Source of the DNA: Planctomycetota bacterium
Lineage (GTDB): Bacteria > Planctomycetota > UBA1135 > UBA2386
Direction: 5' to 3'
Length of the DNA stretch: 64,000 nt
Assembly (NCBI GenBank): GCA_046290465.1
Contig: JBKAGP010000001.1
Span: 4,224,001 to 4,288,000 of the forward strand
Every line of letters starts with the position of its first letter. Position 1 is the first letter of the stretch. The translations under genes and the position numbers were made by a program. Of the stretch, positions 2,650 through 47,649 are shown one piece after another. Below the pieces are notes generated by a model. The model was given only the letters and a program-made list of their open reading frames with translations, did no database searches and was not told the DNA's origin.

Positions 2650-3240
2650 GTGAAGGGCATCGAGAAGATCACCTCCGTCCGGCTCGCCGAGATCCTGACC
2701 GAACGAGACGTCGTCTCGTCGGAGGTGATCACCGACGCGCTGTACTCGCAGGACAAGAACGGAGAGCCGTTCGCGCAGGTGCTCGTCAACGGCGGCCACA
2801 TCACCGAGTGGGACCTCGCCAAGATCGTCACCGAGAACTTCAACCTGCCGTTCCTGATGGCGGGCAACTACTCGATCAGCGAGGAGGCCAAGGAGCGCCT
2901 GCCGAAGGAGACGCTGTTCAAGTACACGATCGTGCCGCTCGACACGTTCGGCGACATCGTCACGGTCGCGATGCCGGTGATGCTCTCGTTCGAGGACATC
3001 GCCAAGATCCAGAAGGAGCACAACTGCGATCTGTTCCCGTACGTCGGCCTGATCTCGGAGAACAAGAAGGTCCTGACCGACATGCACAAGGACTACCCGC
3101 AGTGGGTCGAGGACGACGCCAAGCGTCGCGAGGAAGAGGCCGTCAAGCGCAAGGCCTCGCCGAAGAAGGGCGAGGAGGGCGACTGGATGAGCATCTTCGA
3201 CGCCGGGGACGAGGCGATCCAGCAGTCCAAGAAGGGCTGA
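2650..3240 (+). CDS. Stand-alone GspE/PilB N-terminal (MshEN/T2SSE_N-like) domain protein
   Basis: SD GAGGAGG before the GTG. Motifs RLAEIL...ITDALYSQ...FAQVLVNGGHITEWDL and IVPLD..GD.VTVAM. No ATPase domain. Confidence 0.7.
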   Translation: MKGIEKITSVRLAEILTERDVVSSEVITDALYSQDKNGEPFAQVLVNGGHITEWDLAKIVTENFNLPFLMAGNYSISEEAKERLPKETLFKYTIVPLDTFGDIVTVAMPVMLSFEDIAKIQKEHNCDLFPYVGLISENKKVLTDMHKDYPQWVEDDAKRREEEAVKRKASPKKGEEGDWMSIFDAGDEAIQQSKKG

Positions 3241-3277
3241 TCGCCCAAAAGGGCTGAGCACCAAGAAGGGCTGATCG
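3227..3277. repeat. 17-bp tandem repeat x3 spanning the stop codon of the 2650-3240 gene
   Basis: ccaagaagggctgatcg / cccaaaagggctgagca / ccaagaagggctgatcg. Confidence 0.9.
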
Positions 3278-3577
3278 TCAGAACAGGCCGGGATAGATCG
3301 GCGCGAACGGCGGCACGAAGCTGGCCAGCGCGCTGACGACTGCCAGGGTGCAACCCAGGACCGGCTTGCGACCCGCCTCAGCGAGGTGCGAGGCGATGGC
3401 GCCGTTCCACAGGGCCACCAGGGCGAGGATGATCGCCGGCAGGTTGCACGACCAGACCAGGAACGCGTCGTAGAACGGTCCACGAACGATCACCAGCGCG
3501 ATCATCCCGAGCCGGATGGCGATGCTGGCGGCCGCAGCCTTCAGGCAGCGCCGGGCCCGAACCTCGGCCCCTGCCAC
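3278..3577 (-). CDS. Small hypothetical membrane protein
   Basis: 99-aa ORF with three hydrophobic segments, co-oriented downstream of the DUF2007-like gene. Start uncertain. Confidence 0.45.
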   Translation of the reverse strand: MAGAEVRARRCLKAAAASIAIRLGMIALVIVRGPFYDAFLVWSCNLPAIILALVALWNGAIASHLAEAGRKPVLGCTLAVVSALASFVPPFAPIYPGLF

Positions 3578-3588
3578 GAGCGTTCCGC

Positions 3589-3885
3589 CTAGTCCTCGTG
3601 CTCGGCGTCCGGGTCGTTCTTCGATTCCATCGCCTGGCGCGTCAGGTCGTCCTGGTCGACATCGGTCGGCTTCAGGATCTCGCGGGCGCGTTCGGCGGCC
3701 TCGGTCGGGACCATCACGCGCACGTTGTTGACGTTGAGCAGGCGCTGGCTCATCGCGAACTCGTCGACCGACGAGTTGCCGTCGATGAACGCCGGGATGC
3801 CCTCGGCCTCGAGCATGGCGACGTAGATCTTCGCCTGGTCGGGCGTGCTGGCGACCTTGACGACGGTGCTGATGGGTTCGCTCAC
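3589..3885 (-). CDS. DUF2007-like putative signal-transducing protein
   Basis: GTG start overlaps the tat stop (GTGA). Pattern A.IYVAMLEAEGIPAFI...VRVMVPTEAAERAREIL. Confidence 0.75.
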   Translation of the reverse strand: MSEPISTVVKVASTPDQAKIYVAMLEAEGIPAFIDGNSSVDEFAMSQRLLNVNNVRVMVPTEAAERAREILKPTDVDQDDLTRQAMESKNDPDAEHED

Positions 3886-4391
3886 GATGCTTCCTTCTCC
3901 TTGTTGGTGTCCGCCGTGGCCGGCTCCGGGGTGTCGGAGGCGCTCGGCGGCGGGTCGGTATCGCCGGTCGGGTCCGGGTTGCCGGTCGGGTCCGGGTCGC
4001 CGGACTCGACCTCCACGACCGGATCGTCGTCCATGGCGTCGTGGTCCGCGTCGTGGTCCGTCGGCCCGTCGGTCGGTTCGTCGCGGACCGCTGCCGACAT
4101 CGCCTCGTGGGTCAGGTCCTTCAGGGCCCCCGCGGGGTTGGACATCGCGCGCGGCACCTTGGCCACGTTCTTGACCTCGCGGGCGGTCTCCTTGAACGCG
4201 CGGCCGGCGTCGCGCAGGTCGCCGTCGCGGTCGATCTGGTCCTTGAAGTCCTGGAAGCTGCGCTTCAGCTGCGCGACCACCCGACCCAGACTGCGGCCAG
4301 CATCGGGCAGGTTCCGGCCGTAGAGCAGGAGCCCGATGAAGAACAGCAGGAACATCTCCTGCCAGCCGATCGACGAGAACAGGGCGATCAC
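3882..4391 (-). CDS. Twin-arginine translocase TatA/TatB family subunit
   Basis: IGWQEMFLLFFIGLLLYGRNLPDAGRSLGR transmembrane segment plus amphipathic helix, followed by an acidic tail. Confidence 0.85.
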   Translation of the reverse strand: MIALFSSIGWQEMFLLFFIGLLLYGRNLPDAGRSLGRVVAQLKRSFQDFKDQIDRDGDLRDAGRAFKETAREVKNVAKVPRAMSNPAGALKDLTHEAMSAAVRDEPTDGPTDHDADHDAMDDDPVVEVESGDPDPTGNPDPTGDTDPPPSASDTPEPATADTNKEKEAS

Positions 4392-4448
4392 GGAACGGTG
4401 AGCATAACGCCAATGGAAGTGGAAGGCCTGCCGCTACAACGGTGGGCG

Positions 4449-5279
4449 ATGATTCGTCTTTCGTCGTGCGTCGCGGCGGCGCTGGCGATGCTCGCCGGCT
4501 GTGCCGCACCGCCGGTCCCGCCGCCCCAACCGGCCCCGGCCGAGACCCCGCAGCTGGCGACGAGCTTCGGCGACCAGACCCCGGGCTTCGTGCCGGCCGG
4601 CGCACTCGATGCGGTGGTGCCGATCTACCACCCCGACACCGAGACGCTCGGCAGCGGCACGGTCGTCGCGCCGGACCGTGTCCTGACCGCCGCGCACGTG
4701 GTCGACGGCCTGCCGCGCGACGAGACCGGCCGGATCCCGCTGCGCATCGACGGCGCCGACGTGATCGCCACGGTGATGGACAAGGGCGACGCGAGCACGC
4801 CGCACGGCGACTGGGCGCTGCTGCTGGTCGAAGGCAAGAGCTTCCTGCAGCCGGCCGTCGTGCACGAGGCGGCGCGCGACTGGCGCTGGCATCCGCCCGA
4901 GGGCACCGAGATCCTGCTGGTCGGCTACGCGGCGGGGTTCTTTCCGGGCCGGACGATCGACATCGACGCGCCGACCCCGAGCGTGCGGGCCCGGGTGCGC
5001 GAGACCGTCGAGCGCCGTTCGTGCTGGTATGCGGTCGGCGACGAGCTCGACCTCGGCGGCATGTCGGGCGGCGGCGTGATGGTCTGGAACCACGAGGATC
5101 GCCGCGCCGAGCTGATCGGCGTGTTCCGCGGCTACGTGCCGACCGAGACCGTCACGACCGAGACCACCCGCGTGATGGGCCTGCAGGTCACCAGCCGCGA
5201 GACGCGCACCCAGAGCATCGCGTTCATGGTGCACCGGCTGCCCGAGGTCGTCGCCAATCCGGGCGTTCCGCTCCGCTGA
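4449..5279 (+). CDS. Trypsin-like (S1) serine protease lipoprotein
   Basis: Lipobox LAGC; catalytic motifs LTAAHV, GDWALL and GMSGG. Confidence 0.8.
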   Translation: MIRLSSCVAAALAMLAGCAAPPVPPPQPAPAETPQLATSFGDQTPGFVPAGALDAVVPIYHPDTETLGSGTVVAPDRVLTAAHVVDGLPRDETGRIPLRIDGADVIATVMDKGDASTPHGDWALLLVEGKSFLQPAVVHEAARDWRWHPPEGTEILLVGYAAGFFPGRTIDIDAPTPSVRARVRETVERRSCWYAVGDELDLGGMSGGGVMVWNHEDRRAELIGVFRGYVPTETVTTETTRVMGLQVTSRETRTQSIAFMVHRLPEVVANPGVPLR

Positions 5280-5342
5280 GGCACGGACTCTGGTGGAAGC
5301 ACTGGACCGGGATCCGTCCGCTCCATACCTTCTTTCGCCCTC

Positions 5343-8577: not shown

Positions 8578-9153
8578 TTACCGCCGCTTGAAGCCGACCA
8601 CCAGGCCGGTCGCGCCGAGGCCGGCGGCGGGCAGGCTGCCGAGGATGAAGCCCTTGAAGCTCTCGAGGTCCTGTTCGGCGCGCTCCATGAAGCTCGAGAA
8701 CAGGTCGTTGATGGCCTGCCAGTCGACCACGACCAGTTCGGCCTGCGCCAGCAAGAACGTCATCACCAGCCAGAAGCCGACGGCGATCGCGGCGAGCTTG
8801 AGCACCGTGCGCACGAACAGGCCGATGCAGAAGCCGGCGATGAAGCTGAAGCCGAGGCGGAAGACGCCCTTCGACGCGGGCTCGCCCTCGGCGGCCGCGG
8901 TCTGGCCGGTGCCGCCGCCGCCCGGCTGGTCGGGCACGAGCCCCGCGCCGAGTGCGTTCGGGGTGCCAGCCCCGCCGCCGGTGGTCTCGGGCGCGTCGCC
9001 GCTGACGAGCGTCAGCACGCCGCCGGCGACGACGGCCACGACGGCGATGCCGAGCGCGACTTTCTCCCAGCGGGGCATGTCGCGCAGCCACTCGCCGAAG
9101 CTGCGCTTCTGGCCGGGAGTCGACTTCGGGCTCTGCTGCTCGTCGCTGCTCAT
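8578..9153 (-). CDS. FUN14-like membrane protein
   Basis: LGFSFIAGFCIGLFVRTVLK, VVVDW and GLVVGFKR are typical of FUN14 domains; one additional N-terminal TM segment. Confidence 0.75.
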   Translation of the reverse strand: MSSDEQQSPKSTPGQKRSFGEWLRDMPRWEKVALGIAVVAVVAGGVLTLVSGDAPETTGGGAGTPNALGAGLVPDQPGGGGTGQTAAAEGEPASKGVFRLGFSFIAGFCIGLFVRTVLKLAAIAVGFWLVMTFLLAQAELVVVDWQAINDLFSSFMERAEQDLESFKGFILGSLPAAGLGATGLVVGFKRR

Positions 9154-9284
9154 GGGGCGCACACTATCGGGGGGCGGCCCGCTGCTCGCCAGTCCGGGAA
9201 GCACCGGATCGGCGCTCGGTGCTTTTTCCCCTTGGCCGCACTCGGGTGACCCAACAACATTCGGGGTTCCCAAACCGCAATCTC

Positions 9285-10319
9285 ATGAGAAACCTCCTCG
9301 TCATTGCCGCAATTGCGGCCTTCTCCGCCGGGGCGCTCGCCCAGGACAAGATCACGCTGACCAACGGCGACGTCATCACCGGCAAGATCAAGTCGATGGC
9401 CGCCGGCAAGGTCACGATCCACTCGCCCGTGCTCAAGGATGTCGTCGTCCCGATCGCCGACGTCAGCGACATGGTCACTGGCGAGCCGGTCATGCTGAAG
9501 ACCAAGAGCGGGGACCTGTGGTCGCGCCGCATCGTGGGCATCGAGAACGAGAGCCTGCGCCTCGAGGGCGGCGACACGACCGAGTTGCCGGTCGACAACC
9601 TCGGCATGATCAATCCGCCGAGCAAGAAGCAGCCGAAGTGGACGGGCTCGCTGAAGTTCACGGCGCTCTACACGGACGGCAACACGCGCCGGGAGTCGGC
9701 GGGCCTGCTGTTCGACGCGTCGCGCACGACCGAAGAGGAGCGCATCTCGGTCGACGCGATCTGGGACTACGGTAAGGACAAGGACGTCGACCGGACCAGC
9801 GCGACGTTCGGCCAGGAGACGCTGACCCAGCGCCGCACCGGCGCCGGCATCAAGTATGACTACTTCCTGAGCAAGCGCTGGTATGCGCTGGCCACGGCCC
9901 GCGCGCTCGGCGACACGCTCGCCGACCTCAACCTGCGCTTCACCGCCGGTGCCGGTCTCGGTTACACGGTGATCGACGACGACACGACCCTGCTGCTGAC
10001 CGAAGTCGGTCTTTCGTACTACACCGAGGACTACCGCACGCCGGGTCTGGCGTCGCAGGACTCGATGGCGCTGAGGGTCGCCTACCGCTTCACGCACCAG
10101 CTCAGCGAGCAGACCAAGTTCTCGCACCGCCTCGAGGCGTTCCCGTCGCTCGAGGACATGGACGACTTCTACCTGCAGGCGGTCACCGAGATCTCGACGT
10201 CGTTGACCGACAGCATGATCGCCTCGGTCGCCCACACCATCGACTACGACAACACGCCGGCCGCCGGCCGCGAGCGCAGCGACAACCGCGTGCTGCTGAC
10301 CGTCGGCTGGAGCTTCTGA
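9285..10319 (+). CDS. DUF481-like outer membrane beta-barrel protein
   Basis: Signal peptide; ITLTNGDVITGKI N-terminal domain; alternating beta-strands; C-terminal VGWSF barrel signal. Confidence 0.85.
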   Translation: MRNLLVIAAIAAFSAGALAQDKITLTNGDVITGKIKSMAAGKVTIHSPVLKDVVVPIADVSDMVTGEPVMLKTKSGDLWSRRIVGIENESLRLEGGDTTELPVDNLGMINPPSKKQPKWTGSLKFTALYTDGNTRRESAGLLFDASRTTEEERISVDAIWDYGKDKDVDRTSATFGQETLTQRRTGAGIKYDYFLSKRWYALATARALGDTLADLNLRFTAGAGLGYTVIDDDTTLLLTEVGLSYYTEDYRTPGLASQDSMALRVAYRFTHQLSEQTKFSHRLEAFPSLEDMDDFYLQAVTEISTSLTDSMIASVAHTIDYDNTPAAGRERSDNRVLLTVGWSF

Positions 10320-10328: not shown

Positions 10329-10384
10329 TCGTACGGCTCGGTAGTCGGGCGGCTCAGTAGTCGTACGGCTCAGTAGTCGTACGA
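10329..10384. repeat. 16-bp tandem repeat x3.5 spanning the lptD stop codon
   Basis: tcgtacggctcggtag / tcgggcggctcagtag / tcgtacggctcagtag / tcgtacga; the lptD stop is the tca at 10370-10372. Confidence 0.9.
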
Positions 10385-12889
10385 CTGGCCTTCGCGGACG
10401 GCCGCGCCGCCGAAGCGGTTGCGGCGTCCGCGCATCCCGCCGAACGTCGGCTGGAAGTCGAGCCGGAACGTCACCTCGTCGGCGAACGGGTTGTAGACGG
10501 CGGTGAGGCCGATGACCCAGTCGTGGTCGCGACGGCTCAGGCCGAACTGGTAGGCCAGGAACTCGTCGGTCGTCAGGTCGCGCTGGGCCAGCCCGAACGC
10601 GGACCAACGATCGTAGAACTCGGTGCTGGCGCCGACGCCGAGCACGCCGTCGAACAGGCGGTCCTCGCGGTATTCGATCGCCCAGGTCAGGCCCAGCACC
10701 TTGCCGAAGGTCAGTTCGGTGTCGAGGGTCTGCATGCCGCGCTGCCAGTCGAGGTCGCCGTACCAGGCGAACGCGAAGTCGTCGAACGGCAGCCAGTCGA
10801 CGTTGGGCCGCAGCAGCACGTCGTAGAAGAACAGGCCGAGGGTGTCGCCGCTGTTGTCGCGGTTGGCGTTGGGCAGCACATCCTGGGCGAGGTCTACGAA
10901 CACGAAGTCGCGCGGCTGCCGTTCGCCGTCCTCGGTCTCGACCATCTTCTGGAACAGGTTGCGCACCTCGAAGCGCAGCAGTTCGCGTTCGCCCAGCAGG
11001 TCGATGGTGTCGTAGCCGAGCTGGTTGAGGCGGATGCGGTTGACGTTGTCGTACTGGAACAGCGAGCCCGGCTGGTCGTCGACGTGGTAGCGGTTGCGGT
11101 AGGTCAGGCGCGGCGCGATCACGTGGCGCAGGCCGTCCTGTTCGCCGTCGGCGTCGAGCCACTTCCAGGTGCGGGACAGGCGGGTGCCGATCTGCACGCC
11201 GGCCTCGAGCGCGATCCGTTCTTCGCTGTCGCCGTTTGGCGTGTCGTCGTAGAACGTGCCGCGACCGCTGACGTACGGACGCACGTTGAACGAGCCGACG
11301 CGGAACGGCGCCGACACTTCGACGTGCTGGTCGGCGCGGAACGTGCGGTCGCTGACGCGGATGCCGGCGCGGTCGTCCCAGTCGCTGCGGCGCTGGCCGA
11401 GCTGGGTCTCGAGGTCGAGCACGATCGGCGTGTCCCACGGCGTCTCGGCGATCGGCTCGGCGAGCCACTGGTAGGTCATCACCGGCAGCTCCTCGACGAA
11501 GCGCTGCGCCAGGTAGCGGTCGTCGCGGTAGCTGAAGTCATTGAGGTTGAAGCGCGTGCCGAGCGTCAGCAGGTGGTTGCCGTCGGCGTGGTGCACGTAG
11601 GCGCTGGTCTCCGGCAGCTCGTCCTGTCGGTACGGGCCGATGAAGAACTCGCTGTAGACGCCGGCGTCCGAGGCGTGGAACGCCTGCAGGTCGAGGTGGG
11701 TCCGTTCGCCGAGGTGCACGCGGTTGGCGGTGCGCACGACCGAGCGGTGCGTGTCACCGAGGAAGCTGCCGTCGATCGTGCGCTGGATCTCGCGGATGTT
11801 CGGGCCGCTGTCGTCGATGTAGAACGCCTCGGTCCGGCCCTCGTAGAGGCCGTCGACGCCGTAAGTCAGGCCGGCTTCGAGCGGGTAGCCGCGTCGTTGG
11901 ATCCAGCCGACACCGAGCTCCCACTCGCCGCGGAACTCGCCGGCCGGGCGGCCGGTGATCCAGTTGTGCAGCGCGCCGCCGGTCTGGTTCCACGGCAGCC
12001 CGAACACGACACCGAACTGCGCGCCGAGCGAACTCGAGTAGCCGCCCGACACGCTCTTGATCGGGAACTCGCTCTGGCTGCCGGTGAAGATCCGCGCGTC
12101 GGGCACCGGCAGGAAGTCGATGCCGCCCGCCTGGATGGTCTGGCCGCGCGACACGACCTCGAACTCGCCGACACGTTCGATGATCTCGGCCTCGGCGACG
12201 TGCAGCGCCGCGTGCGGCTTCGAGGCGGTGCAGGTCGTCAGCGTCAGGTCCTTGCCGATCCAGCGCGGGCCCTGCTTGACCAGCCGCGGACCACGCACGA
12301 CGAGTTCTTGCTGGCCGGTCTTCTTGGTCGTCAGGTAGCGGATCTCGACGTTCTCGACCACGATGCGGTCGTCGATGGGGGAGATCCACAGCCGGTCGCA
12401 GCGCAGCACCTCGACGCCGTTCTGCACCAGGATCACGTCGCCTTCGCAGTACAGGTAGCGGAACAGGCGCAACGCCTCGTCGCTGAGCGCGGTGTCGGTG
12501 TTCGCCGGGTCCGGCGCCTGGCCGACGGCCGTCAGCGTTCGCTGCAGACGCTGCCGGATCGCGTCGGGCGACAGCCGGCGTCGCGGCTCCGGCGACGGCA
12601 AGCCGCGCGTCGGCAGGCCGCGCTCGCGACCGCGCTCGCCGGCCAGCCGCATGGTCTCGAGGTCGTTGAGGATCAGCAGCTTCTCGCCGCGGATCACCAG
12701 CCCGAGCTCGGCGATCGCGAAGCGAAAGCCACCCTGGGCCTGCACCTCGTAGTAGTCGTCGCGTTCGCGGGAGTTGTAGGCGCCGACCTGCAGGTCGTAG
12801 TCGGTGCGCGGATCCTTGCCCTGCGCCTGCACCGCGCTGGCCACGGCCAGGGTGAGCACGGCTCCGAGGAGCGGTTGCGGGCGCGTCAC
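10370..12889 (-). CDS. lptD: LPS-assembly outer membrane protein LptD-like
   Basis: Signal peptide; LTTCT...PH motif; GYSSSLG; LRHVIAP; beta-barrel C-terminus; last gene of the kds operon. Confidence 0.75.
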   Translation of the reverse strand: MTRPQPLLGAVLTLAVASAVQAQGKDPRTDYDLQVGAYNSRERDDYYEVQAQGGFRFAIAELGLVIRGEKLLILNDLETMRLAGERGRERGLPTRGLPSPEPRRRLSPDAIRQRLQRTLTAVGQAPDPANTDTALSDEALRLFRYLYCEGDVILVQNGVEVLRCDRLWISPIDDRIVVENVEIRYLTTKKTGQQELVVRGPRLVKQGPRWIGKDLTLTTCTASKPHAALHVAEAEIIERVGEFEVVSRGQTIQAGGIDFLPVPDARIFTGSQSEFPIKSVSGGYSSSLGAQFGVVFGLPWNQTGGALHNWITGRPAGEFRGEWELGVGWIQRRGYPLEAGLTYGVDGLYEGRTEAFYIDDSGPNIREIQRTIDGSFLGDTHRSVVRTANRVHLGERTHLDLQAFHASDAGVYSEFFIGPYRQDELPETSAYVHHADGNHLLTLGTRFNLNDFSYRDDRYLAQRFVEELPVMTYQWLAEPIAETPWDTPIVLDLETQLGQRRSDWDDRAGIRVSDRTFRADQHVEVSAPFRVGSFNVRPYVSGRGTFYDDTPNGDSEERIALEAGVQIGTRLSRTWKWLDADGEQDGLRHVIAPRLTYRNRYHVDDQPGSLFQYDNVNRIRLNQLGYDTIDLLGERELLRFEVRNLFQKMVETEDGERQPRDFVFVDLAQDVLPNANRDNSGDTLGLFFYDVLLRPNVDWLPFDDFAFAWYGDLDWQRGMQTLDTELTFGKVLGLTWAIEYREDRLFDGVLGVGASTEFYDRWSAFGLAQRDLTTDEFLAYQFGLSRRDHDWVIGLTAVYNPFADEVTFRLDFQPTFGGMRGRRNRFGGAAVREGQSYDY

Positions 12890-23365: not shown

Positions 23366-23368
23366 CGC

Positions 23369-26246: not shown

Positions 26247-26513
26247 ATGAGACTCTGCCCCTCCGTCGATGGCTCTGCTTCGCCGCTGATCACGCACCGG
26301 ATCGGAACCGACGTGTGTCTCTCCCGCCAGGCCGGGAACTTCCACAAGTGCCACCGCTGCATCTACCGCGGCCAGGCCGCCGACTGGCAGCCCGCCGACG
26401 AGGTGTCGTTCGGTGGCAACCAGGCCGAGGACCCGAGCCCGCGCGACGTGAAGAAGGTCGTCATCCCGCGACCGGAGCCGCAGGAAGACAAGCGCGTCGC
26501 CGCGAACGGCTGA
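26247..26513 (+). CDS. Small Cys-rich hypothetical protein
   Basis: MRLCP...VCLSRQ..NFHKCHRCIY, four Cys; host-like codon usage. Confidence 0.55.
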   Translation: MRLCPSVDGSASPLITHRIGTDVCLSRQAGNFHKCHRCIYRGQAADWQPADEVSFGGNQAEDPSPRDVKKVVIPRPEPQEDKRVAANG

Positions 26514-26532: not shown

Positions 26533-26554
26533 GCTACCCCCTGGTCCGGGTAGC
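26533..26554. terminator. Hairpin between convergent genes
   Basis: gctaccc-N8-gggtagc 7-bp stem; no U-tract. Confidence 0.35.
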
Positions 26555-26592
26555 TAGTCCTGGTACCTAGTTCTGGTACCTAGTCCTGGTAC
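26554..26592. repeat. 13-bp tandem repeat x3 spanning the Hpt gene stop codon
   Basis: ctagtcctggtac / ctagttctggtac / ctagtcctggtac; the stop is the cta at 26580-26582. Confidence 0.92.
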
Positions 26593-26942
26593 TGGGCCAG
26601 GACCCTCCTGAGCGCTTCTTCGGCGGCCGCGTAGTGCTCGGCCAGCTGCGGCGCCAGCTGCTTCGACTCGTCCATCTGCTGGTTGCGGGTCGAGATCTGC
26701 AGCTTCTCGCAGACGTCCTGCACGAGGTGGGCTCCCAGGTTGCCGCTCGAGCCTTTCAGCGAGTGCGCCGCGCGCTCCGCCTTCTCGAAGTCGCCGTTGT
26801 CCAGGCCTTCCTGCACCGCGGCGACCTTCGACGGGCTGTCGTCGAGGAACATCTGGATCAGGTCCAGCAGCAGCTCCGGGTCGCCGTCGTCGGCGAACGA
26901 GAGCAGTTCGTCCAATACTGTCTGATCCAGAACGTCGTGCAT
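26580..26942 (-). CDS. Stand-alone histidine phosphotransfer (Hpt) protein
   Basis: AAHSLKGSSGNLGA motif; purine-rich SD upstream. Confidence 0.92.
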   Translation of the reverse strand: MHDVLDQTVLDELLSFADDGDPELLLDLIQMFLDDSPSKVAAVQEGLDNGDFEKAERAAHSLKGSSGNLGAHLVQDVCEKLQISTRNQQMDESKQLAPQLAEHYAAAEEALRRVLAQYQD

Positions 26943-27117
26943 GGGTCCCCTCTCCCTCCAGGATCGACCCATCCGCGCCCGAACTTGATCCCGCAACAAG
27001 ACTCCTCCCCCGCCAAAGTAGCCGTACGGTACGCGGTTCATCCTCCAACTTTCGCCGCGCGTCGCGCGGCGAGTTGAGCGATGACCAGTCCGAGCCGCCT
27101 TCGCTGGTAGTGGGGGG

Positions 27118-28338: not shown

Positions 28339-28488
28339 GGGGCGAACATTATGCCGTATGGTCGGGGCTCCGAACCCCTCGAAAGGAGATCTTGGCGCTG
28401 GCCTGACGACCCCAGCGAGCGCGGTCGTCGGTTCGCCGACGCAGCCGCTGAGCTGGCCCCGGCCGCCGCGCGCCTGCATGATCCGGGC

Positions 28489-33557: not shown

Positions 33558-33947
33558 ATGGCAGCCAAGAAGGCCAACCCCGGCTTTGCGTTCATCCTCG
33601 AGTTCCTCAAGAAGAACCCGAAGGCCACCTACCAGGAGATGGCCGCGGCCGCGGCCAAGAAGAAGCTCAAGGTCTTCCCGATCATGTGGGGCCGCGCCCA
33701 GGCGATGCTCGGCATCGTCAAGCAGGCGCCGCGCGGCAAGGGCAAGGCGGCCAAGGCGAAGGCCGTGAAGGCGGCCGGCGTCGCCAAGCGCGGGCCGGGT
33801 CGGCCGCGCAAGGCCGCCGCGCCGGCGCTCGACGGCTCGCTCGACAGCATCGTCGCGGCCGTCAAGAGCAGCGAGGAGGCGAAGGCCCGCTACCGGGGTG
33901 CGCTGGAGCAGATCCAGGCGATCCTGAACGACGTGCTCGCCGACTAG
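33558..33947 (+). CDS. Lys/Ala-rich putative nucleoid-associated protein with an AT-hook
   Basis: Highly basic; KRGPGRPRK AT-hook; C-terminal coiled coil. Confidence 0.75.
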   Translation: MAAKKANPGFAFILEFLKKNPKATYQEMAAAAAKKKLKVFPIMWGRAQAMLGIVKQAPRGKGKAAKAKAVKAAGVAKRGPGRPRKAAAPALDGSLDSIVAAVKSSEEAKARYRGALEQIQAILNDVLAD

Positions 33948-34113
33948 GAGCGCGTCCATCTAGTGGACGCGCTGCCAACCGTGATCGCGGAAGCGGCGTG
34001 TACGCGTGCGGACGGGGCTTTGCCCGCTAGGAGCGCGTCCATCTCGTGGACGCGCTGCCAACCGTGATCACGGAAGAGGCGTGTACGCGTGCGGACGGGG
34101 CTTTGCCCGCTAG
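33944..34113. repeat. Two tandem 83-bp palindromic units bounded by CTAG (REP/MITE-like)
   Basis: Units 33944-34026 and 34027-34109 differ at 3 positions; CTAG at 33944, 34027 and 34110; internal hairpins. Confidence 0.92.
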
Positions 34114-34119
34114 CCGGTC

Positions 34120-34168
34120 GGTCGCTCGGCCGATCAGGTAGCTCAGCCGACCGGTCGCTCAGCCGATG
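34120..34168. repeat. 16-17-bp tandem repeat x3 spanning the aminotransferase stop codon
   Basis: ggtcgctcggccgatca / ggtagctcagccgacc / ggtcgctcagccgatg; the stop is the tca at 34159-34161. Confidence 0.85.
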
Positions 34169-35046
34169 AGGCTGCGCCAGTGTGGCCCGTCGCGTTCGAC
34201 CAGGCGCCGCTGCAGATGCTCGCCGAACAGCGGCAGCAGCTGCGCGGTCGACGGCGCCGCGCCGAGTTCGCGCCCATCGAGGTGCGTGACCGGCGACATG
34301 TCGCGCAGCGTGCTGCAGAGGAACATCTCTTCGGCCGACTCCAGGTCGGCCCGCGTCAGGGTGCGTTCTTCGACCCGTTCGCCGACGGTCGGCAGGAACT
34401 CGAGCAGCATGCCGCGGGTGATGCCCGCCAGGATGCCGGCCGCGAGCGGCGGCGTGCACCAGACGCCGTCCCGCCGCACGAACAGGTTCGACGTCGAGGC
34501 CTCGGTCACCGAGCCGTCGGTGTTGAGCATCACGCAGTCGGTCGCGCCGCGGGCTTTGGCCTCGGCGAGGCCGAGCACGTTGTTGAGGTAGTTGCCGCTC
34601 TTGGCCGCCGGGTCGAGCGCGCGCCGGTCGTTGCGCAGCCGCTCCACCAATCCCAGGTGCACCGGCTTGCCGGTGGCCAGCGTCAGCGGCCGCACCAGCA
34701 CGACCCAGCACGGCGGCTGGTTGGCGTAGGCCAGGTCGATGTTGGGGGCGTCGCCGGTGCCGCGTGTGACCACGATGCGCACGTAACTGTCGCCGTGGTC
34801 GGCCGCCTCGAGGGTCGCCTGGACCCTCTGCGCGACGGTCGCCTCGTCCAGGTCCAGCGCCATCATCAGCCCGGCCGCGGAGGCCTCCAGGCGGGCCCAG
34901 TGCTCGATCCACGCCAGCGGCACGCCGTCGTGCGTTCGGACCACCTCGTAGATCGAGTCGCCGAACAGGAAGCCCCGGTCGAGCACGGGGATGCGACCGT
35001 CGGCCTCGGAAGTGATCGCACCGTCGACATTGCACAGGTTCGCCAT
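34159..35046 (-). CDS. Aminotransferase class IV (D-amino-acid/branched-chain/PabC family)
   Basis: DRGFLFGDSIYEV, KSGNY, TEASTSNLF and ILAGITR motifs. Confidence 0.92.
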   Translation of the reverse strand: MANLCNVDGAITSEADGRIPVLDRGFLFGDSIYEVVRTHDGVPLAWIEHWARLEASAAGLMMALDLDEATVAQRVQATLEAADHGDSYVRIVVTRGTGDAPNIDLAYANQPPCWVVLVRPLTLATGKPVHLGLVERLRNDRRALDPAAKSGNYLNNVLGLAEAKARGATDCVMLNTDGSVTEASTSNLFVRRDGVWCTPPLAAGILAGITRGMLLEFLPTVGERVEERTLTRADLESAEEMFLCSTLRDMSPVTHLDGRELGAAPSTAQLLPLFGEHLQRRLVERDGPHWRSLIG

Positions 35047-35056
35047 GAGGCCGCGG

Positions 35057-35066
35057 ATGGTAAGCT
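35057..35066. promoter_or_regulatory. Candidate bidirectional overlapping -10 elements
   Basis: atggtaagct reads TAAGCT on + (preceded by TGG) and TACCAT on -; the divergent start codons are only 31 bp apart. Confidence 0.55.
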
Positions 35067-35077
35067 CGGTTGCCTGC

Positions 35078-36535
35078 ATGTGTGGCTTCATCTCGATCTT
35101 TGGACCTCCTGAATCCGACACGATCCAGGACGTCATCAATGGCCTCGTCGCCATCCAACACCGCGGGCAGGATGCTGCCGGCGCCGTCTCCTTCCACGAC
35201 AAGTTCCAGGCGAAGAAGGGCCTGGGCCTGGTCCGCGAGGTCTTCGAAGAGAAGCACCTTCAGCGCTTGCGCGGCAACCTGAGCGTCGGCCACGTTCGCT
35301 ACCCGACGGTGGGCCTCGGCGAGGACACCGACGTGCAGCCGTTCTGGCTGGAGTATCCGGTGGGCGTCGCGATGGCGCACAACGGCAACGTCACCAACTT
35401 CCACGAACTCAAGCGCACCTACTTCCAGCGGCGCAACATCCCGCTCGGTAGCAACTGCGACCTCGAGGTCGTGCTCTACGTGTTCGCCGACGCGCTGATG
35501 CGCCGCGGTGTCGATCCGATCGGCATCGACAACGTCGAGGCCGGCGTTGCCGAGGTCTACGAGAAGGTCAAGGGCGCCTACAGCGTCGTCGGCATCACCA
35601 GCGACGGCATGTATGCGTTCCGCGATCCGTTCGGCATCAAGCCGTGCATCTTCGGCAAGAAGGAGACCGACGAGGGCACCTATTACGCGGTCGCCAGCGA
35701 GTCGGTCGTGCTCGACGTCGCCGGCTACGAGATCGTGCGCGACCTCGACGCCGGCGAGATGCTGTGGATCGGGCCGGACCGCGTGCCGCAGTTCCGCAAG
35801 GTCAGCAAGCAGCCGCACCGCCCCTGCATCTTCGAATACGTCTACTTCGCGCGGCCGGACACGTTCCTGGACGGCACCTCGGTCTACGAGGCGCGCCTGG
35901 AGATGGGGCGCCGGATGGCGCACCGGTTCCAGGAGACCGGCCTCGAGGCCGACGTCGTGATCCCGGTGCCCGAGTCGGCGCGCACGGCGGCGCAGACGAT
36001 GGCCGAGGAGCTCGGCCTCCGCTGCCGCGAGGGCTTCGTCAAGAACCGCTACGTCGGCCGCACGTTCATCATGCCCAACGACCAGGCGCGCCAGGCGACG
36101 ATCCGCGCCAAGCTCAACCCGATCCGTTCGGAGTTCGAGGGCAAGCGCGTGATCATCATGGACGACTCGATCGTGCGCGGGAACACCAGCCGGCACATGG
36201 TCAAGATCGCGCGCGAGATGGGCGCCGCGAAGGTCTACTTCGCCAGCTACTCGCCGCCGCTGAAGTTCCCGTGCTTCTACGGCATCGACATGTCGTCCAA
36301 GCGCGACTTCATCGCGCGCGACCGCACCGACGAGATGATCGCCAAGGAGATCGGCGCCGACGCTGTCGTCTGCCAGTCCGTCGAGCAGATGGAGGACGCG
36401 GTGCGCGCCGCCGGCAACCAGGACCTGCAGTTCTGCAAGGGCTGCTTCGAGGGCACCTACCCGACCGGCGACATCACCGACGAGATGATCGACGACATCG
36501 AGAAGGACCGGGTCGCGGCGGGCAGCGCGACCTAG
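35078..36535 (+). CDS. purF: Amidophosphoribosyltransferase
   Basis: N-terminal MCG; QHRGQDAAG, GHVRYPT, CIFEYVYFARPD, KNRYVGRTFI and DDSIVRGNT motifs. Confidence 0.97.
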   Translation: MCGFISIFGPPESDTIQDVINGLVAIQHRGQDAAGAVSFHDKFQAKKGLGLVREVFEEKHLQRLRGNLSVGHVRYPTVGLGEDTDVQPFWLEYPVGVAMAHNGNVTNFHELKRTYFQRRNIPLGSNCDLEVVLYVFADALMRRGVDPIGIDNVEAGVAEVYEKVKGAYSVVGITSDGMYAFRDPFGIKPCIFGKKETDEGTYYAVASESVVLDVAGYEIVRDLDAGEMLWIGPDRVPQFRKVSKQPHRPCIFEYVYFARPDTFLDGTSVYEARLEMGRRMAHRFQETGLEADVVIPVPESARTAAQTMAEELGLRCREGFVKNRYVGRTFIMPNDQARQATIRAKLNPIRSEFEGKRVIIMDDSIVRGNTSRHMVKIAREMGAAKVYFASYSPPLKFPCFYGIDMSSKRDFIARDRTDEMIAKEIGADAVVCQSVEQMEDAVRAAGNQDLQFCKGCFEGTYPTGDITDEMIDDIEKDRVAAGSAT

Positions 36536-42801: not shown

Positions 42802-43607
42802 CAGCCGCGACGGCGACGACGCTGCCGCCAGCTGGCCTCGTAGATGCGCGCCTCGGCGTCGCGCGGCCGGTCGCCGAGATCGAGGTAGCGCGAGCCGGCC
42901 CGCTTGCTGAAGAACGTGAACACGTCGAGCACCTGCGCCCCGTCCTTGCCGGCGACCAGGTCGTGCACGTTGTCGCGGTTGCGACCGAGCGTCGAGATCC
43001 GCCCGGGCAGGATCAGGTCGTCGCGGGTCTCGCGCACCTCGAACGTCTTGCCCGAGTCGACCGCCGGCGGCGCGCTGACGAAGTCGTAGTTGCGCACCCG
43101 GGCCTCGCCGCCGATGCCCATGATCACGCCGTTGTAGTCGAGGTGGTCGTGGTGCGAGAAGCCCTTGCCCGGCTTCAGCGTCATCGACATCGCGGCCAGT
43201 GGAAAGCGCTCGCCGTCCTTGGCGTGCTGCTTGCGAAACGCCTGCATCGCGCCGCGCAGCGGTGCCTTCGGGTCGGCGATCCGCGTCATCGCCGCGGCGA
43301 CCGTCATCAGGTAGGCCTGCTCGTCCTCGCCCTTGCTGTCGACCAGGCGCCGGCTCAGCGGGTAGAGGTGCTCGAGGAAGCCGGCGTAGTCGAGCTTCGT
43401 GCCCAGGCCCGGCGCCGGCCGGTCCGAGCCGGGCTTCGGATCCTGGGCGCGCGGCGATCGGCCGAGCAGCAGCGCGGTGACGCCGGCCGCCGACAGCCAG
43501 AACACGCGGCGCCGTTCGATCGTCACGCCGTCGGCGACCTCGTCACGGCCGCCGGTCTCGTCGACGACGACCGCCGGGCCGTCGCCCTCGTCGGGGAAAT
43601 AGCTCAT
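42801..43607 (-). CDS. Tat-signal cupin protein (thiol dioxygenase-like)
   Basis: ERRRVFWL twin-arginine-like signal; cupin motifs HHDH and DNVH, then VLDVF. Confidence 0.65.
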   Translation of the reverse strand: MSYFPDEGDGPAVVVDETGGRDEVADGVTIERRRVFWLSAAGVTALLLGRSPRAQDPKPGSDRPAPGLGTKLDYAGFLEHLYPLSRRLVDSKGEDEQAYLMTVAAAMTRIADPKAPLRGAMQAFRKQHAKDGERFPLAAMSMTLKPGKGFSHHDHLDYNGVIMGIGGEARVRNYDFVSAPPAVDSGKTFEVRETRDDLILPGRISTLGRNRDNVHDLVAGKDGAQVLDVFTFFSKRAGSRYLDLGDRPRDAEARIYEASWRQRRRRRG

Positions 43608-43644
43608 GGCGGCATCCTAGCCGCCGCCACCCGACCGCGCCCGC

Positions 43645-44628
43645 CTAGCTGGCCGCCTGCTTGCGCGAGCTGGCCGCCTGCTTGCGCGGCACCCGCCCAC
43701 GCAGCTTGGGCACCAGGATCAGCGCCTCGCGCGCGATCGCGCCGTCCATCTTGGACTGGCCGACGCGGCGATCGATGAAGTGGATCGGCGCCTCGTGCAC
43801 GCGGAACCCGGCGCGCTTCATCCGGAACGCCATCTCGATCTGGAACGCGTAGCCCTGCGCGTGCACCGCGTCGAGGTCGAGCTGCCGCAGTGCGTCGACG
43901 TGGAAGCAGCGGAACCCGGCCGTGTTGTCGCGGATGCCCGAGCCGAGCATCAGCCGCGCGTAGAGGTTGGCACCGCGCGACAGCATGCGACGACGGAAGC
44001 CCCAGCCGACCGTGCAGCCGCCCTTGACGTAGCGGCTGCCGATCACGAGCTCGGCGTGCTCCGAAGCGTGGACCAGCCGCGGCAGGTCCCACGGCGCATG
44101 GCTGAAGTCCGCGTCCATCTCGCAGACCCGTTGGTAGCCGTGTTCCATCGCGTAGCGGAAGCCGGCGATGTAGGCGGTGCCGAGGCCCTGCTTGCCCTGA
44201 CGGTGCATCACGTGCACGCGCGGATCGGCGGCGGCCATGCGGTCGGCGATCTCACCGGTGCCGTCCGGCGAGCCGTCGTCGACGATCAGCACGTCGCAGT
44301 CGAGGTAGCCGTGCACCGCCTCGACGATCGGCTGCACGTTGCCCTTCTCGTTGTAGGTCGGGATCACGACCAGCGTGCGCCACGGCGCCCGATGCGGGCG
44401 CGTCGGCAGCGGGCCGCGACCTTCCCCGACGTGGAGCGCCGCCGACGCCATCGCCGCGGCCTCGTCCTGTTCCTGCAGCACCACGATGCGCGAGCTGTCG
44501 ACGCCGTCGCGAACGCGCCGCTCGACCTCGTCGAAGTCGCGCACCGCCACGAGCGGTTCGGCGAGCGGTCGTGGACCCGGCTGCGGGGCCTGACTGCGGA
44601 CGGGTTGCTCGCGTTCGGGTTGGCTCAA
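43645..44628 (-). CDS. Polyprenol-phosphate mannosyltransferase-like GT2 with an N-terminal extension
   Basis: VIPTYNE, VDDGSPDGT, GLGTAY, EMDADFSH, IGSRY and GYAFQIEM motifs. Start uncertain (TTG 44628 or ATG 44451). Confidence 0.85.
   Translation of the reverse strand: MSQPEREQPVRSQAPQPGPRPLAEPLVAVRDFDEVERRVRDGVDSSRIVVLQEQDEAAAMASAALHVGEGRGPLPTRPHRAPWRTLVVIPTYNEKGNVQPIVEAVHGYLDCDVLIVDDGSPDGTGEIADRMAAADPRVHVMHRQGKQGLGTAYIAGFRYAMEHGYQRVCEMDADFSHAPWDLPRLVHASEHAELVIGSRYVKGGCTVGWGFRRRMLSRGANLYARLMLGSGIRDNTAGFRCFHVDALRQLDLDAVHAQGYAFQIEMAFRMKRAGFRVHEAPIHFIDRRVGQSKMDGAIAREALILVPKLRGRVPRKQAASSRKQAAS
43647..43688. repeat. Exact 21-bp in-frame duplication abutting the GT2 stop codon
   Basis: agctggccgcctgcttgcgcg x2; the protein ends RKQAASSRKQAAS. 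Confidence 0.9.
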
Positions 44629-44681
44629 TGCGACGTGGGGTGGGCGGTCACGGGCAGTGTAGCCACGCCCGCGGCGGTGGA

Positions 44682-45329
44682 CTAACCGTTCTTCACGCCG
44701 AAGTAGATGCCGTCGCCGACCGGCACCACCAGCCCTTCGATCTGCGGCGATGCGAGCGCCTCGTCGAGGAACGCACGCAGGCCGATCTCCTTCTCGGCGT
44801 TGCCATCGGCGATTCGGCCGCTCGCCAACACGTTGTCCGCGAACAGCGCGCCGCCCGGGCGCAGCAGCCGCAGCGCGTGGCGCAGGTAGCCGACGTAGCC
44901 CGGCTTGTCGGCATCGAGGAACACCGCGTCGAACGCGCCGTCCGGCAGTTGGCCGAGGGTCTCCGACGCCGGCCCGACACGCACCTCGATCTTGCCGCTC
45001 TGGTCGGAGTTGGCGATCCACTCGCGCGCGAACTCGGCGTGCTTGGGCTCGATGTCGTGCGTGACGATGCGGCCGTCGGCCGGCATCCCCCGTGCCATCG
45101 AGATCGCGGAGTAGCCGCCGAGCGTGCCGACCTCGACGACCTTGCGCGCCCCGAGGCACTGCATCATCAGCTTGAGGTAGGTGCCCTGCTCGAACGAGAT
45201 GTGGATCTCCGGCAGTCCTGCGCGTTCGGCGGCGGCGCGCAGGTCGCGCAGATAGTCGTCCTCCTGGGTCGTCTTGGTGGCGAGGAAGGCGAAGAGTCGT
45301 TCGTCGACGGGGGTGCTCGTCTTCGGCAT
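44682..45329 (-). CDS. Class I SAM-dependent O-methyltransferase (COMT/CCoAOMT-like)
   Basis: VEVGTLGGYS, FDAVFLDADK and LRPGG..FADNVL motifs. Confidence 0.9.
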   Translation of the reverse strand: MPKTSTPVDERLFAFLATKTTQEDDYLRDLRAAAERAGLPEIHISFEQGTYLKLMMQCLGARKVVEVGTLGGYSAISMARGMPADGRIVTHDIEPKHAEFAREWIANSDQSGKIEVRVGPASETLGQLPDGAFDAVFLDADKPGYVGYLRHALRLLRPGGALFADNVLASGRIADGNAEKEIGLRAFLDEALASPQIEGLVVPVGDGIYFGVKNG

Positions 45330-45402
45330 GACGTCGGACGGTATCCGACAACGCCGGAAAAGCCGTTACGCCCGCCGCCGTTCCGACGCCCTGACGGATG
45401 CC

Positions 45403-45579
45403 ATGAGAATCCTGGTCATGCTGGTCATCCTCGGCTCCCTGCTGACGCGCGAGGAGCAGGGCCAAGCCGCGCCGGAGCCGCCGGTTGTGGCCGGGGCCGC
45501 GGTCGCGACCGCAGCGGTGCTCGGCCCCGCGCTTGGTCCGCCCCCGCGCGCCGGGTATGCCTGTAGCCGTGACGACTGA
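45403..45579 (+). CDS. Possible small secreted/membrane peptide
   Basis: MRILVMLVILGSLL hydrophobic start; 58 aa; overlaps the pyrE start. Confidence 0.3.
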   Translation: MRILVMLVILGSLLTREEQGQAAPEPPVVAGAAVATAAVLGPALGPPPRAGYACSRDD

Positions 45580-46135
45580 ATTCGACCCTGCAGCGGCCAA
45601 GGCCCGCCTGCTCGAGCTCGTTCGCGAGCGCGCCTACAAGGACGGCATCGACATCGTGCTGGCGTCGGGCAAACGCTCCGACTTCTACATCAACGGCAAG
45701 AAGGTCTCGCTGCACCCCGAGGGCCTCTACCTGATCGGGATGCTGCTGCTCGACAAGCTCGAGAAGTACCCGGAGATCACCGCGGTCGGCGGCCTGACGC
45801 TCGGCGCCGACCCGCTGGCGAGCGCGGTCGCGTGCCTGTCGCACCTGACCGGCCGCAACCTCAAGGCCTTCCTGGTGCGCAAGGAGGCCAAGGGCCACGG
45901 CACCGGCTCGCGCATCGAGGGCGACCTCGAGAAGGGCGAGAAGGTCTGCGTGCTCGAGGACACGGTCACCACCGGTGGCTCGGCGCTCAAGGCGATCGAC
46001 GCGGTCGTCGAGGCCGGCGCCGACCCGGTCGTGGTGATGGCGATCGCCGATCGCGAAGACCCCGACGCGGCGCCGTTCCGCGCAGCGCACAAGGTCGAGT
46101 GTCTGGTGACGCTCAGCGAGATCCGCGCGTCGTGA
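45569..46135 (+). CDS. pyrE: Orotate phosphoribosyltransferase
   Basis: LASGKRSDFYIN, GGLTLGADP, VRKEAKGHGT and LEDTVTTGGS motifs. Confidence 0.95.
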   Translation: MTTEFDPAAAKARLLELVRERAYKDGIDIVLASGKRSDFYINGKKVSLHPEGLYLIGMLLLDKLEKYPEITAVGGLTLGADPLASAVACLSHLTGRNLKAFLVRKEAKGHGTGSRIEGDLEKGEKVCVLEDTVTTGGSALKAIDAVVEAGADPVVVMAIADREDPDAAPFRAAHKVECLVTLSEIRAS

Positions 46136-47505
46136 GCGAGAACGCCGGCAAGCGCACCTTCGCGATCGTGCCGGCCGCCGGCGTCGGCGAGCGCATGGGC
46201 AAGGACAAGGCGCTGCTCGACCTGGGCGGCGTGACCGCGATCGAACGCATCGTGGCGACCTGCCGCACGGCGGGGGTCGACGGCTTCGTGGTCGTGCGCC
46301 GCGAGGATGCCGCTCCGCTGCCCGAGACGCTCGACGTGCAGCTGGTGACGACCAGCGGCAAGGGCGACATGTCGGACAGCCTGCGCATGGCGCTGCTCAA
46401 GCTGCCGCGCGACGTCGAGGCCGTGCTGGTGTTCCCCGTCGACCACGCGCTGGTCGAGGTCGACACCGTGATGGCGCTGCGCGCCCGGCTGCAGCGCGGC
46501 GGCTGCGCGATTGCGCTGCCGCTGTTCCGCGACCAGCCGGGGCACCCGGCGGCGATGAAGCGCGCCGTGTTCAACGAGATCGATCGCGACGGCACGACGC
46601 TGCGCGATGTGATCCGCCGCGACCCGGAACGCGTCGCCGTCGTGCCGACCGCCAACCACTGGGTGCGTGCCGACCTCGACCGCCCCGAGGACCTGCGCGC
46701 CGCGCGCTGCGACCTGTCCGGCGAGCCGTGGAGCACCGTGGCGCAGATGTTCCGGCACCGCAGCCACCGCTCGTATCTGCCCGATGCGGTGCCCGACGCG
46801 CAGATCCAGCGGCTGGTCGACGCGGCGCGCTACGCCTCGACGTCGAGCTTCATCCAGGCTTACTCGGTCATCGCGGTGCGCGAGAAGGAACTCAAGAACG
46901 AGTGCGCGCGGCTGTGCGGCGGCCAGGCGCACATCGTCGAGGCACCGGTGTTCTTCGCGATCTGCGCCGACCTGCACAAGATCGCGCGCGCCTGCGCCGA
47001 CCACGAAACCGAGGTGCGCAGCGACAGCTTCGAACTGTTCCTGCAGGCGACCGTCGACGCGGCGCTGCTCGGCCAGAACCTGCAGCTCGCGGTCGAGGCC
47101 GAGGGGCTCGGTGCGTGCATGATCGGCGGCGCGCGCAACCACCCGATCGAGATCGCCAAGGCGCTCGGGCTGCCGCGGCACTGCTTCGTCGTGTTCGGCA
47201 TGACGGTCGGCAAGCCCGGCGACGACCCGGTGCCGCGCGGTCGGATGCCGCTCGCGGGGGTGCTGCACTGGAACCGCTACGACGACTCCGACACCGCGGA
47301 CGTGCTGCGCGGCGCCGACGAGGTGATGCGCACCTGGGCGAAGCGCGCCAACGCCGAACAGGGTGGCTACAACGGCCGGCCGGTCAGCGAAGACAAGGGC
47401 TGGGCCGACCGCATGGCCAGGATGTGGGGCGGCGAGAGCGCCTACGCCGAGGCCCGCAAGGTGTTGCGCGACGAGCTGCGCGAGCTGGGGTTCGGGCTGG
47501 ACTGA
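46132..47505 (+). CDS. Fusion of a MobA/MocA-like nucleotidyltransferase and an NfsA-like nitroreductase
   Basis: N-terminal PAAGVGERMG..KALL, FPVDH, GHP, DLDRPED; C-terminal HRSHRSY, ASTSSFIQAYSVI, EGLGACMIGGARN. Confidence 0.85.
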   Translation: MSENAGKRTFAIVPAAGVGERMGKDKALLDLGGVTAIERIVATCRTAGVDGFVVVRREDAAPLPETLDVQLVTTSGKGDMSDSLRMALLKLPRDVEAVLVFPVDHALVEVDTVMALRARLQRGGCAIALPLFRDQPGHPAAMKRAVFNEIDRDGTTLRDVIRRDPERVAVVPTANHWVRADLDRPEDLRAARCDLSGEPWSTVAQMFRHRSHRSYLPDAVPDAQIQRLVDAARYASTSSFIQAYSVIAVREKELKNECARLCGGQAHIVEAPVFFAICADLHKIARACADHETEVRSDSFELFLQATVDAALLGQNLQLAVEAEGLGACMIGGARNHPIEIAKALGLPRHCFVVFGMTVGKPGDDPVPRGRMPLAGVLHWNRYDDSDTADVLRGADEVMRTWAKRANAEQGGYNGRPVSEDKGWADRMARMWGGESAYAEARKVLRDELRELGFGLD

Positions 47506-47532
47506 CGTTGGGGATGGTCGGGTGTTCCGGCC

Positions 47533-47649
47533 GGACTGGCGTTGGAGCTGCACTGGGCCGTTGGAGGCGCACTGGCCGTTGGAGCCGCACTGGCCGTCGG
47601 AGGCGCACTGGCCGTTCGAGGCATACGGGCCGTTCGAGACACTGGGCCG
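47533..47649. repeat. Degenerate ~18-bp tandem array (about 6 copies)
   Basis: Consensus cactggccgtt(g/c)gaggcg, with copies at 47551, 47570, 47588 and 47606 and degenerate flanking copies. Confidence 0.9.

Follow-up and report, generated by a model that had tools for sequence, protein, structure and literature searches.

Among the published tandem repeats that we compared, those of Borgs (Schoelmerich et al. 2023, PMC9879509) come closest to the arrays reported here: their units are unique, the units inside open reading frames (ORFs) are multiples of three long, and the first unit lies wholly or partly in a gene end. Our arrays occur in a 64,000-nt stretch of the genome of an uncultured member of the Planctomycetota (G000:C1:4,224,001-4,288,000; the window in the following), part of a single 6.59-Mb contig of 70% G+C that represents one chromosome with a tRNA set and a tmRNA. 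An initial annotation of this window had described stop codons copied tandemly into the spacers of convergent gene pairs and suggested a process directed at the ends of translation or transcription.

Comparisons with published systems refer to the excerpts available of the papers cited; PMC2884548 served as general background only. Shared with Borg repeats are the locus-unique units, the multiples of three within genes and a first unit that is often placed in a gene end. Borg repeats, however, are near-perfect, A-rich and carried on a giant archaeal extrachromosomal element, whereas the arrays here reside on a bacterial chromosome and consist mostly of 2-6 imperfect copies of ~12-19 nt, without A bias (13.7% A in units versus 15.3% in controls) and with CCAG/CTGG enriched (82 versus 33 of 289, not at a fixed position). 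The units also show a deficit of CGCG/GCGC. The arrays work in the manner of Borg repeats but do not belong to the Borg family.

Locus-unique satellites are common in prokaryotes, 40.1% having a unique sequence (Subirana and Messeguer 2019, PMC6749651), and the 12-, 14- and 16-nt satellites of Burkholderia derive, according to the same work, from 6-8-nt microsatellites and form families. Unlike these, the units counted here are primitive, copied from local sequence and mostly unrelated to each other, with 308 of the 397 non-coding units sharing no 11-mer with another array and a largest cluster of nine. This bears out the locus specificity noted by the initial annotation, and none of the five window arrays tested has an 11-mer in common with any other of the 397. 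The G-rich heptamer repeats of Xanthomonas and Nostoc (Rehm et al. 2015, PMC4692102) lie within 50 bp of stop codons or overlap them, are under-represented between divergent ORFs and have a preferred unit length that was tied by hypothesis to the polymerase. They follow one shared consensus, whereas we find locus-specific 12-19-mers with a peak at 13-16 nt. A literature search, run without most subscription journals or supplements, yielded no account of a 12-19-nt size class in Planctomycetota.

The arrays are bacterial minisatellites, or variable-number tandem repeats (VNTRs), with head-to-tail units of at least ~10 nt and a copy number that differs between strains. We consider it likely that these strain-variable minisatellites stem from 12-19-nt duplications made genome-wide by a repair-type, probably error-prone copying and probably kept mainly where they are harmless, behind genes. 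We observed a size window, the survival of in-frame sizes only within genes, variation between strains and independent arrays at orthologous junctions. Together these make up a clean, countable mutational signature with sharp size limits and hundreds of sites, polymorphic in the species and filtered for reading frame in genes.

Size range and reading frame of the duplications

Genes were called by our own dicodon model trained on the genome, which gave 5016 genes (1737 ending in TAG), 4802 of them confident, with starts less reliable than stops. For unit sizes we counted perfect, primitive tandem duplications only and compared them with two sequence shuffles. Non-coding sequence held 187 such duplications of 12-19 nt (19, 36, 35, 41, 23, 18, 11 and 4 at the successive lengths), with 10 and 12 at 10 and 11 nt and one each at 20 and 21 nt. 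The two shuffles gave zero in non-coding sequence at 13 nt or more.

Within genes, 80, 99 and 9 perfect duplications were found at 12, 15 and 18 nt (shuffles: 10.5, 1 and 0). They fall in no fewer than 73, 85 and 9 separate genes, and sizes of 13, 14, 16, 17 and 19 nt were absent from coding sequence. The 15-mers were mostly close to protein ends. Because only in-frame sizes occur in coding sequence, one process appears to be common to genes and spacers, its frameshifting products having been removed from the genes. In arrays as a whole, perfect or not, neighbouring copies differ by 9-14%.

Arrays of the window and their alleles in related genomes

All six stretches named by the initial annotation were found at their coordinates. 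Together with two further sites of the window they are:

3227..3277, plus strand: three copies of a 17-nt unit; TGA 3238-3240 of the plus-strand gene 2650-3240 (MshEN-domain protein) lies in the first unit.
10329..10384, minus strand: 3.4 copies of a 16-nt unit; TGA 10370-10372 of the minus-strand gene 10370-12889 (weak LptD match) lies in the first unit.
26533..26592, minus strand: 13-nt array; TAG 26580-26582 of the Hpt-domain gene 26580-26942 lies in the first unit.
34108..34168, minus strand: 3.7 copies of a 16-nt unit; TGA 34159-34161 of the class IV aminotransferase gene 34159-35091 lies in the first unit.
43647..43688, minus strand: perfect 21-nt in-frame duplication, coding, at the C-terminus of the glycosyltransferase gene 43645-44550, adding seven residues.
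47499..47649, plus strand: about six copies of an 18-nt unit after TGA 47503-47505 of gene 46132-47505, at a co-directional junction.
3961..4003, no strand assigned: 18-nt array of this class within the coding sequence of the minus-strand gene 3882-4391.
9157..9173, no strand assigned: single-copy 17-mer just upstream of the start of gene 8578-9153, in a divergent spacer.

The four main arrays, with units of 17, 16, 13 and 16 nt in 2.9-4.1 copies, all lie at convergent junctions and include the stop of one gene in their first unit. The array at 3227 faces a minus-strand gene ending at 3278, and its spacer measures 3 nt once collapsed to a single copy; that at 10329 faces a DUF481 gene (9285-10319). 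At 26533..26592 three good copies (26554-26592) are followed by degenerate distal ones, facing the small plus-strand gene 26313-26513. The remaining two stretches had been listed as related cases. The duplication at 43647-43688, which a contig of run X7 crosses without a gap, is no echo into intergenic space; it is an in-frame duplication of seven codons ending the glycosyltransferase gene. The array at 47499-47649 lies at a co-directional junction, and its regular 18-nt part begins ~30 nt beyond the stop. Judged by eye, its descent from the stop region is plausible. The window is rich in stop-spanning arrays, with four versus a mean of 0.93 per 64 kb; four or more were found in 3 of 103 bins.

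For the strain comparison, which took in two stretches of the window outside the 47499 array, we used contigs of seven runs, including X1, X2, X3, X5, X7 and X9, which are ~99% identical to G000 (X2 is ~1% divergent) and cover it patchily; X1 is a possible source run and X3 is independent. Contigs of both X1 and X3 match across the arrays at 3227 and 10329, which are therefore real and not assembly artefacts. X2 lacks exactly two units at each of these sites (3227-3260 and 10329-10360). The segment 26533-26577 is replaced by 2 nt in X5 and X7, and X2 is 14 nt shorter there; in the 34120 array X2 has seven extra letters at 34131-34137. The coding 18-mer at 3961 has one additional copy in X2, X3 and X9, with different letters each time. 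Thus copy number varies at 3227, 10329, 26554, 34120 and 3961 in X2, X3, X5, X7 or X9. The 17-mer at 9157..9173, single in G000, is duplicated in X2 with one mismatch, a strain-specific 17-nt duplication beside a start codon.

The initial annotation had recommended that orthologous junctions be aligned. Single-copy or other alleles occur in the ~99%-identical strains and unrelated arrays in the relatives. Of 13 relatives in the genus, 5 have overlapping stops (gap -4) at the 10329 junction. At the 3227 junction three relatives have spacers of 3-4 nt, so that any 17-nt duplication there includes a stop, and G011 carries a 19-nt array beginning 7 nt past the stop. The stop of the other gene is echoed at the 26554 junction in G010 (L203) and at the 34120 junction in a metagenome relative (L163), the latter with its own 16-nt unit, and G002 has a long 17-nt array further downstream (L006). 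In one sister species the spacer of the aminotransferase junction has alleles of 69 nt (L012, L179) and 103 nt (L164-L166), which differ by two error-bearing copies of 17-nt scale.

Rates in relatives come from small samples of mostly draft assemblies. Perfect 13-, 14-, 16-, 17- and 19-mers number 17.6 per Mb in G000, versus 5.0, 2.5 and 0 in G004, G015 and G022 (400 kb sampled from each), and 10.3 in other phyla (two cases in 193 kb); 220 kb of G010 had none but nine perfect 15-mers. These rates indicate that members of the genus share the duplication habit to differing degrees; the value for G000 is high without exceeding other high-G+C samples by orders of magnitude. A search of metagenome contigs for conspecific sequence by means of a dispersed 83-nt element (see below) gave no matches, and a second scan found relatives of at most 85% identity.

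Position of the arrays relative to stop codons

For stops and starts we counted arrays with a period of 8-30 and a score of at least 60. Stops lay inside an array in 93 of 4802 cases (48 of 1554 convergent, 45 of 3248 co-directional), starts in 12 of 4802. The concentration at gene 3′ ends, strongest at convergent junctions, is thus confirmed, and in comparison with starts the enrichment expected by the initial annotation exists. Within convergent spacers that hold an array, overlap with the stop is no more frequent than their geometry predicts. Under a junction-conditional null, with arrays collapsed to one copy and spacers longer than 600 nt or beside weak gene calls dropped, arrays overlapped the stop in 52 of 126 cases versus 51.1 expected, and at divergent junctions the start in 6 of 44 versus 6.1 expected. 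Neither unit length nor phase is fixed, and neither anchoring on the stop codon nor stop-codon targeting is supported.

Co-directional junctions point to a zone behind the gene. Per 10 kb, 14-15 arrays start at -15 to -3 relative to the stop, 5-6 at -3 to +5 (7 cases), 11-14 at +5 to +30, 9 at +30 to +45 and 2.5-4.7 further out. Array edges range from -4 to -22, units from 12 to 21 nt, and most arrays contain no stop; array coverage is highest 30-45 nt past the stop (4.2-4.3%) and 1.9% on the stop itself. With array starts of roughly even density from -15 to about +30-45 nt around the stop and variable edges and units, the target is the zone, and the stop merely falls inside it. Arrays avoid the start of the downstream gene, overlapping it 4 times versus 19.6 expected.

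A duplication whose first copy crosses a stop would leave the protein unchanged whatever the length of the unit, and where a convergent spacer is short or the two genes overlap, a duplication of 13-17 nt could hardly avoid including a stop. The stop echo would therefore be a geometric by-product. Geometry together with selection thus offers a useful null for similar findings in other genomes. Perfect 15-mers reach 1.02 per 10 kb in the post-stop zone (21 in 205,654 nt), 0.44 in the first 150 nt of genes (33), 0.37 in the last 150 nt (28) and 0.09 in gene middles (38). It is plausible that this is a survival gradient under a single genome-wide rate thinned by selection.

Several observations weigh against so simple an account. 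At co-directional junctions the conditional null is exceeded about two-fold (stop overlap 40 of 165 versus 19.6 expected), as is a flat null that spreads duplications evenly across all intergenic positions (convergent 57 of 143 versus 20.5%; co-directional 43 of 213 versus 10.5%). Array density drops past +45 nt, in convergent spacers as well, and short convergent spacers, in which the 3′ zones of both genes coincide, have roughly double the density of long ones (30-44 versus 16-21 per 10 kb), while density in divergent spacers is flat at 2-5 per 10 kb. The excess is already present in perfect two-copy arrays, 29 of 52 of which lie in the post-stop zone. All gene calls, moreover, rest on an in-house script. 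The decay with distance, the doubled density and the two-fold excess would suit a process that makes 12-19-nt duplications more often in the first 45 nt past the stop, where RNA polymerase runs without a trailing ribosome (backtracking, R-loops, termination or transcription-coupled repair), selection explaining only part of the pattern. A link to codon bias, tested with a crude reference set that includes some genes unlikely to be highly expressed, is weakly in its favour at convergent ends (p 0.04) and lacking at co-directional junctions (p 0.66). Gene starts, under protein-level selection, still reach 43% of the post-stop density, X2 has its strain-specific duplication at a start codon, and no leading/lagging bias of the copied gene as in head-on replication was seen (29 versus 26). 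Long spacers, for their part, probably contain promoters and unannotated elements. A mutational bias toward the first 45 nt past the stop is possible but not needed, and we regard it as rather unlikely that it shapes the pattern in this way.

The cumulative GC skew has its minimum at genome position 4,216,769, 7 kb ahead of the window, which therefore probably adjoins the replication origin.

Selection for back-up stop codons or termination aids, another proposal of the initial annotation, would fit the way in which arrays gather strongly at convergent 3′ ends while U-tract terminators are scarce in the genome. Our own scan found a hairpin with a U-tract in 9 of 420 convergent spacers longer than 30 nt, and these few terminators suggest that convergent spacers are likely under little constraint. 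The echoed stops, however, are not maintained: multiples of three occur among units at chance level (30 of 98, p 0.59), an in-frame stop is present in 41 of 98 arrays, and a stop codon persists at 131 of 232 echo positions when indels are disregarded. Stop bases are retained less well (417 of 483, 86%) than other bases (1925 of 2125, 91%), the changes being mostly A>G and T>C. As to termination, units show no excess of hairpins over matched controls, and alleles appear and vanish between strains. We hold a selected function of this kind to be very unlikely. Inspection of the four arrays had suggested that a hairpin or quasi-palindrome might act as trigger; this was also rejected, as units are no more structured than matched controls and collapsed alleles less so (DNA parameters, p 0.002).

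The annotation had further considered scars of serial insertion and excision by an element that integrates at stop codons. A dispersed family with such a preference does exist in the genome, and one pair of its copies adjoins the 34120 array:

33944..34114, no strand assigned: two head-to-tail copies of a dispersed 83-nt CTAG-bounded repeat, on the TAG of gene 33558-33947.

A genome-wide blastn search gave 159 hits for this 83-nt repeat, whose copies are placed on TAG stops and also occur as tandem pairs. Apart from it, no 4-mer is rarer than CTAG (observed/expected 0.21). The repeat is separate from the locus-specific arrays: of the 397 arrays, just 8 are found 30 nt or less from it, and of 5015 junctions 106 have the element, 377 an array and 11 both. 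Units of 12-21 nt with edges from -4 to -22 lack the fixed length and register of target-site duplications of insertion sequences (IS) or miniature inverted-repeat transposable elements (MITEs), most arrays contain no stop, and the same unit sizes occur in frame within genes. Among the matches listed for the seven runs, patchy in cover, no allele at the window arrays has an insert between copies. An origin as insertion scars therefore seems extremely improbable.

A second small dispersed intergenic repeat lies at ~27003-27085 of the window and at genome positions 3,401,007 and 5,843,492, and X2 lacks 27032-27097. The cluster of nine related array units may belong to this repeat.

Origin of the duplications and alternative mechanisms

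Of the sources proposed by the initial annotation, repair or slippage is the only one left standing. In 85 simple two-copy duplications, microhomology amounted to 0 nt in 27, 1 nt in 19, 2 nt in 14 and 3-6 nt in 25 cases, versus 42.8, 24.9, 10.8 and 6.4 expected by chance. Some microhomology is used and little is needed, 46 of the 85 having 0-1 nt. Singleton variants cluster in one copy (136 versus 103.8 pairs in 88 arrays; for interior copies 18 versus 10.2 in 20 arrays). The middle copy at 3227 has four substitutions in 17 nt although X2, ~1% divergent, is single-copy there (P ~1e-3 at an assumed per-site divergence of 2.7%). This clustering suggests error-prone re-copying that leaves the ancestral ends outermost, which would give the diverged middle copy reported by the initial annotation for all four arrays. 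That description is accurate at 3227 and depends on the phase chosen at 10329, where, counted outward from the gene, the first two copies match exactly and the third differs. It does not apply at 26554, where the distal copies are the more degenerate, or at 34120, where copies 2 and 3 both differ. Nor is it a rule genome-wide: among three-copy arrays without indels it applies to 2 of the 20 that span a stop and to 7 of the 36 free ones.

We envisage that a first duplication would arise at a nick, flap or break with little microhomology, that a polymerase may then re-copy one segment once or several times with errors, and that arrays would later grow and shrink through misalignment. Candidate sources are a displaced 5′ flap that is re-ligated during nick translation by Pol I, or fill-in by LigD or DinB. 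Faults in flap processing give short duplications, and the bacterial excision-repair patch of 12-13 nt is near the lower size limit found here; both are leads only. G000 encodes Ku, a three-domain LigD, a second ATP-dependent ligase, two DinB-family and two DnaE polymerases, PolA with its 5′ nuclease domain, a stand-alone flap nuclease, MutS and MutL. An end-joining cluster at G000:C1:1,800,175-1,806,971 combines the three-domain LigD, an ATP-dependent ligase and Ku. The C-terminal tail of Ku in G000 contains a repeated five-residue motif.

Some of the evidence speaks against an error-prone repair step. Transversions make up the same share of changes in arrays (141 of 310) as between strains (73 of 171), microhomologies of 3-6 nt are above chance, and old arrays that have collapsed in some strains could mimic youth, while duplication history can cluster variants. 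The long and short alleles of the sister species may likewise be products of collapse. Of 31 genomes searched for Ku, 9 have it; none was found in G002 (89% complete), which has the long 17-nt array, so that end-joining is not clearly required. Work on repeat-induced recurrent repair by error-prone polymerases (3R; McDonald et al. 2011, PMC3114760) describes a clustering of substitutions with repeats and indels in bacteria, E. coli among them; 3R predicts more transversions, in contrast to the equal shares observed here.

The same observations could be explained by ordinary replicative slippage at chance microhomologies, with divergence at the normal clock and occasional collapse and no special or error-prone step; the presence of MutS, MutL, full-length PolA and the stand-alone flap nuclease agrees with this. 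Slippage overlaps with error-prone repair-type copying in all but the source step. It leaves unexplained the sharp 12-19-nt window with its trough at 10-11 nt, the 27 of 85 duplications without microhomology and the clustering of variants in single copies, and we consider it rather unlikely.

Further candidates were tried and rejected. Templated repeat synthesis by a reverse transcriptase (retron- or DRT-like) has no RVT_1 match in the genome (94% complete), and for a by-product of Dcm/Vsr very-short-patch repair neither Vsr nor a C5 methyltransferase was found in it, nor a motif at a fixed unit edge. The genes whose loss would affect the Pol I 5′ nuclease or mismatch repair are present. Anchoring by primase or Okazaki fragments was dismissed as well, CCAG being modestly leading-strand (80 versus 61, p 0.02) with no motif at a fixed edge. 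Nor do arrays appear to grow in a polar manner, outward from the gene: the divergence of proximal and distal neighbours is alike (p 0.27, 38 arrays).

More speculatively, and with a low probability in our view, the arrays might be a signature of this genus' own, in which a repair pathway copies a patch of 12-19 nt repeatedly within a single error-prone event, mostly in the ribosome-free zone behind stops. If so, the genome would have an inherent source of change that separates overlapping gene ends and makes spacers from gene tails; protein termini and linkers would be lengthened by 4-6 residues, and the patch length would report the footprint of an enzyme. In the excerpts of the literature available, the birth of the first minisatellite copy and the basis of lineage-specific unit lengths look unsettled, and the signature described here makes both testable. 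It also indicates how convergent genes that overlap can acquire spacers and how linkers in proteins can be altered, and it supplies many typing markers.

Further differences and genes were noted in the window. In the divergent spacer 28406-28447, X2 has 1883 other letters instead of 40 nt, possibly a mobile insertion. The small proteins encoded at 33558-33947, 26313-26513 and 3278-3577 have no Pfam match at E 0.001; the first two are kept across the genus.

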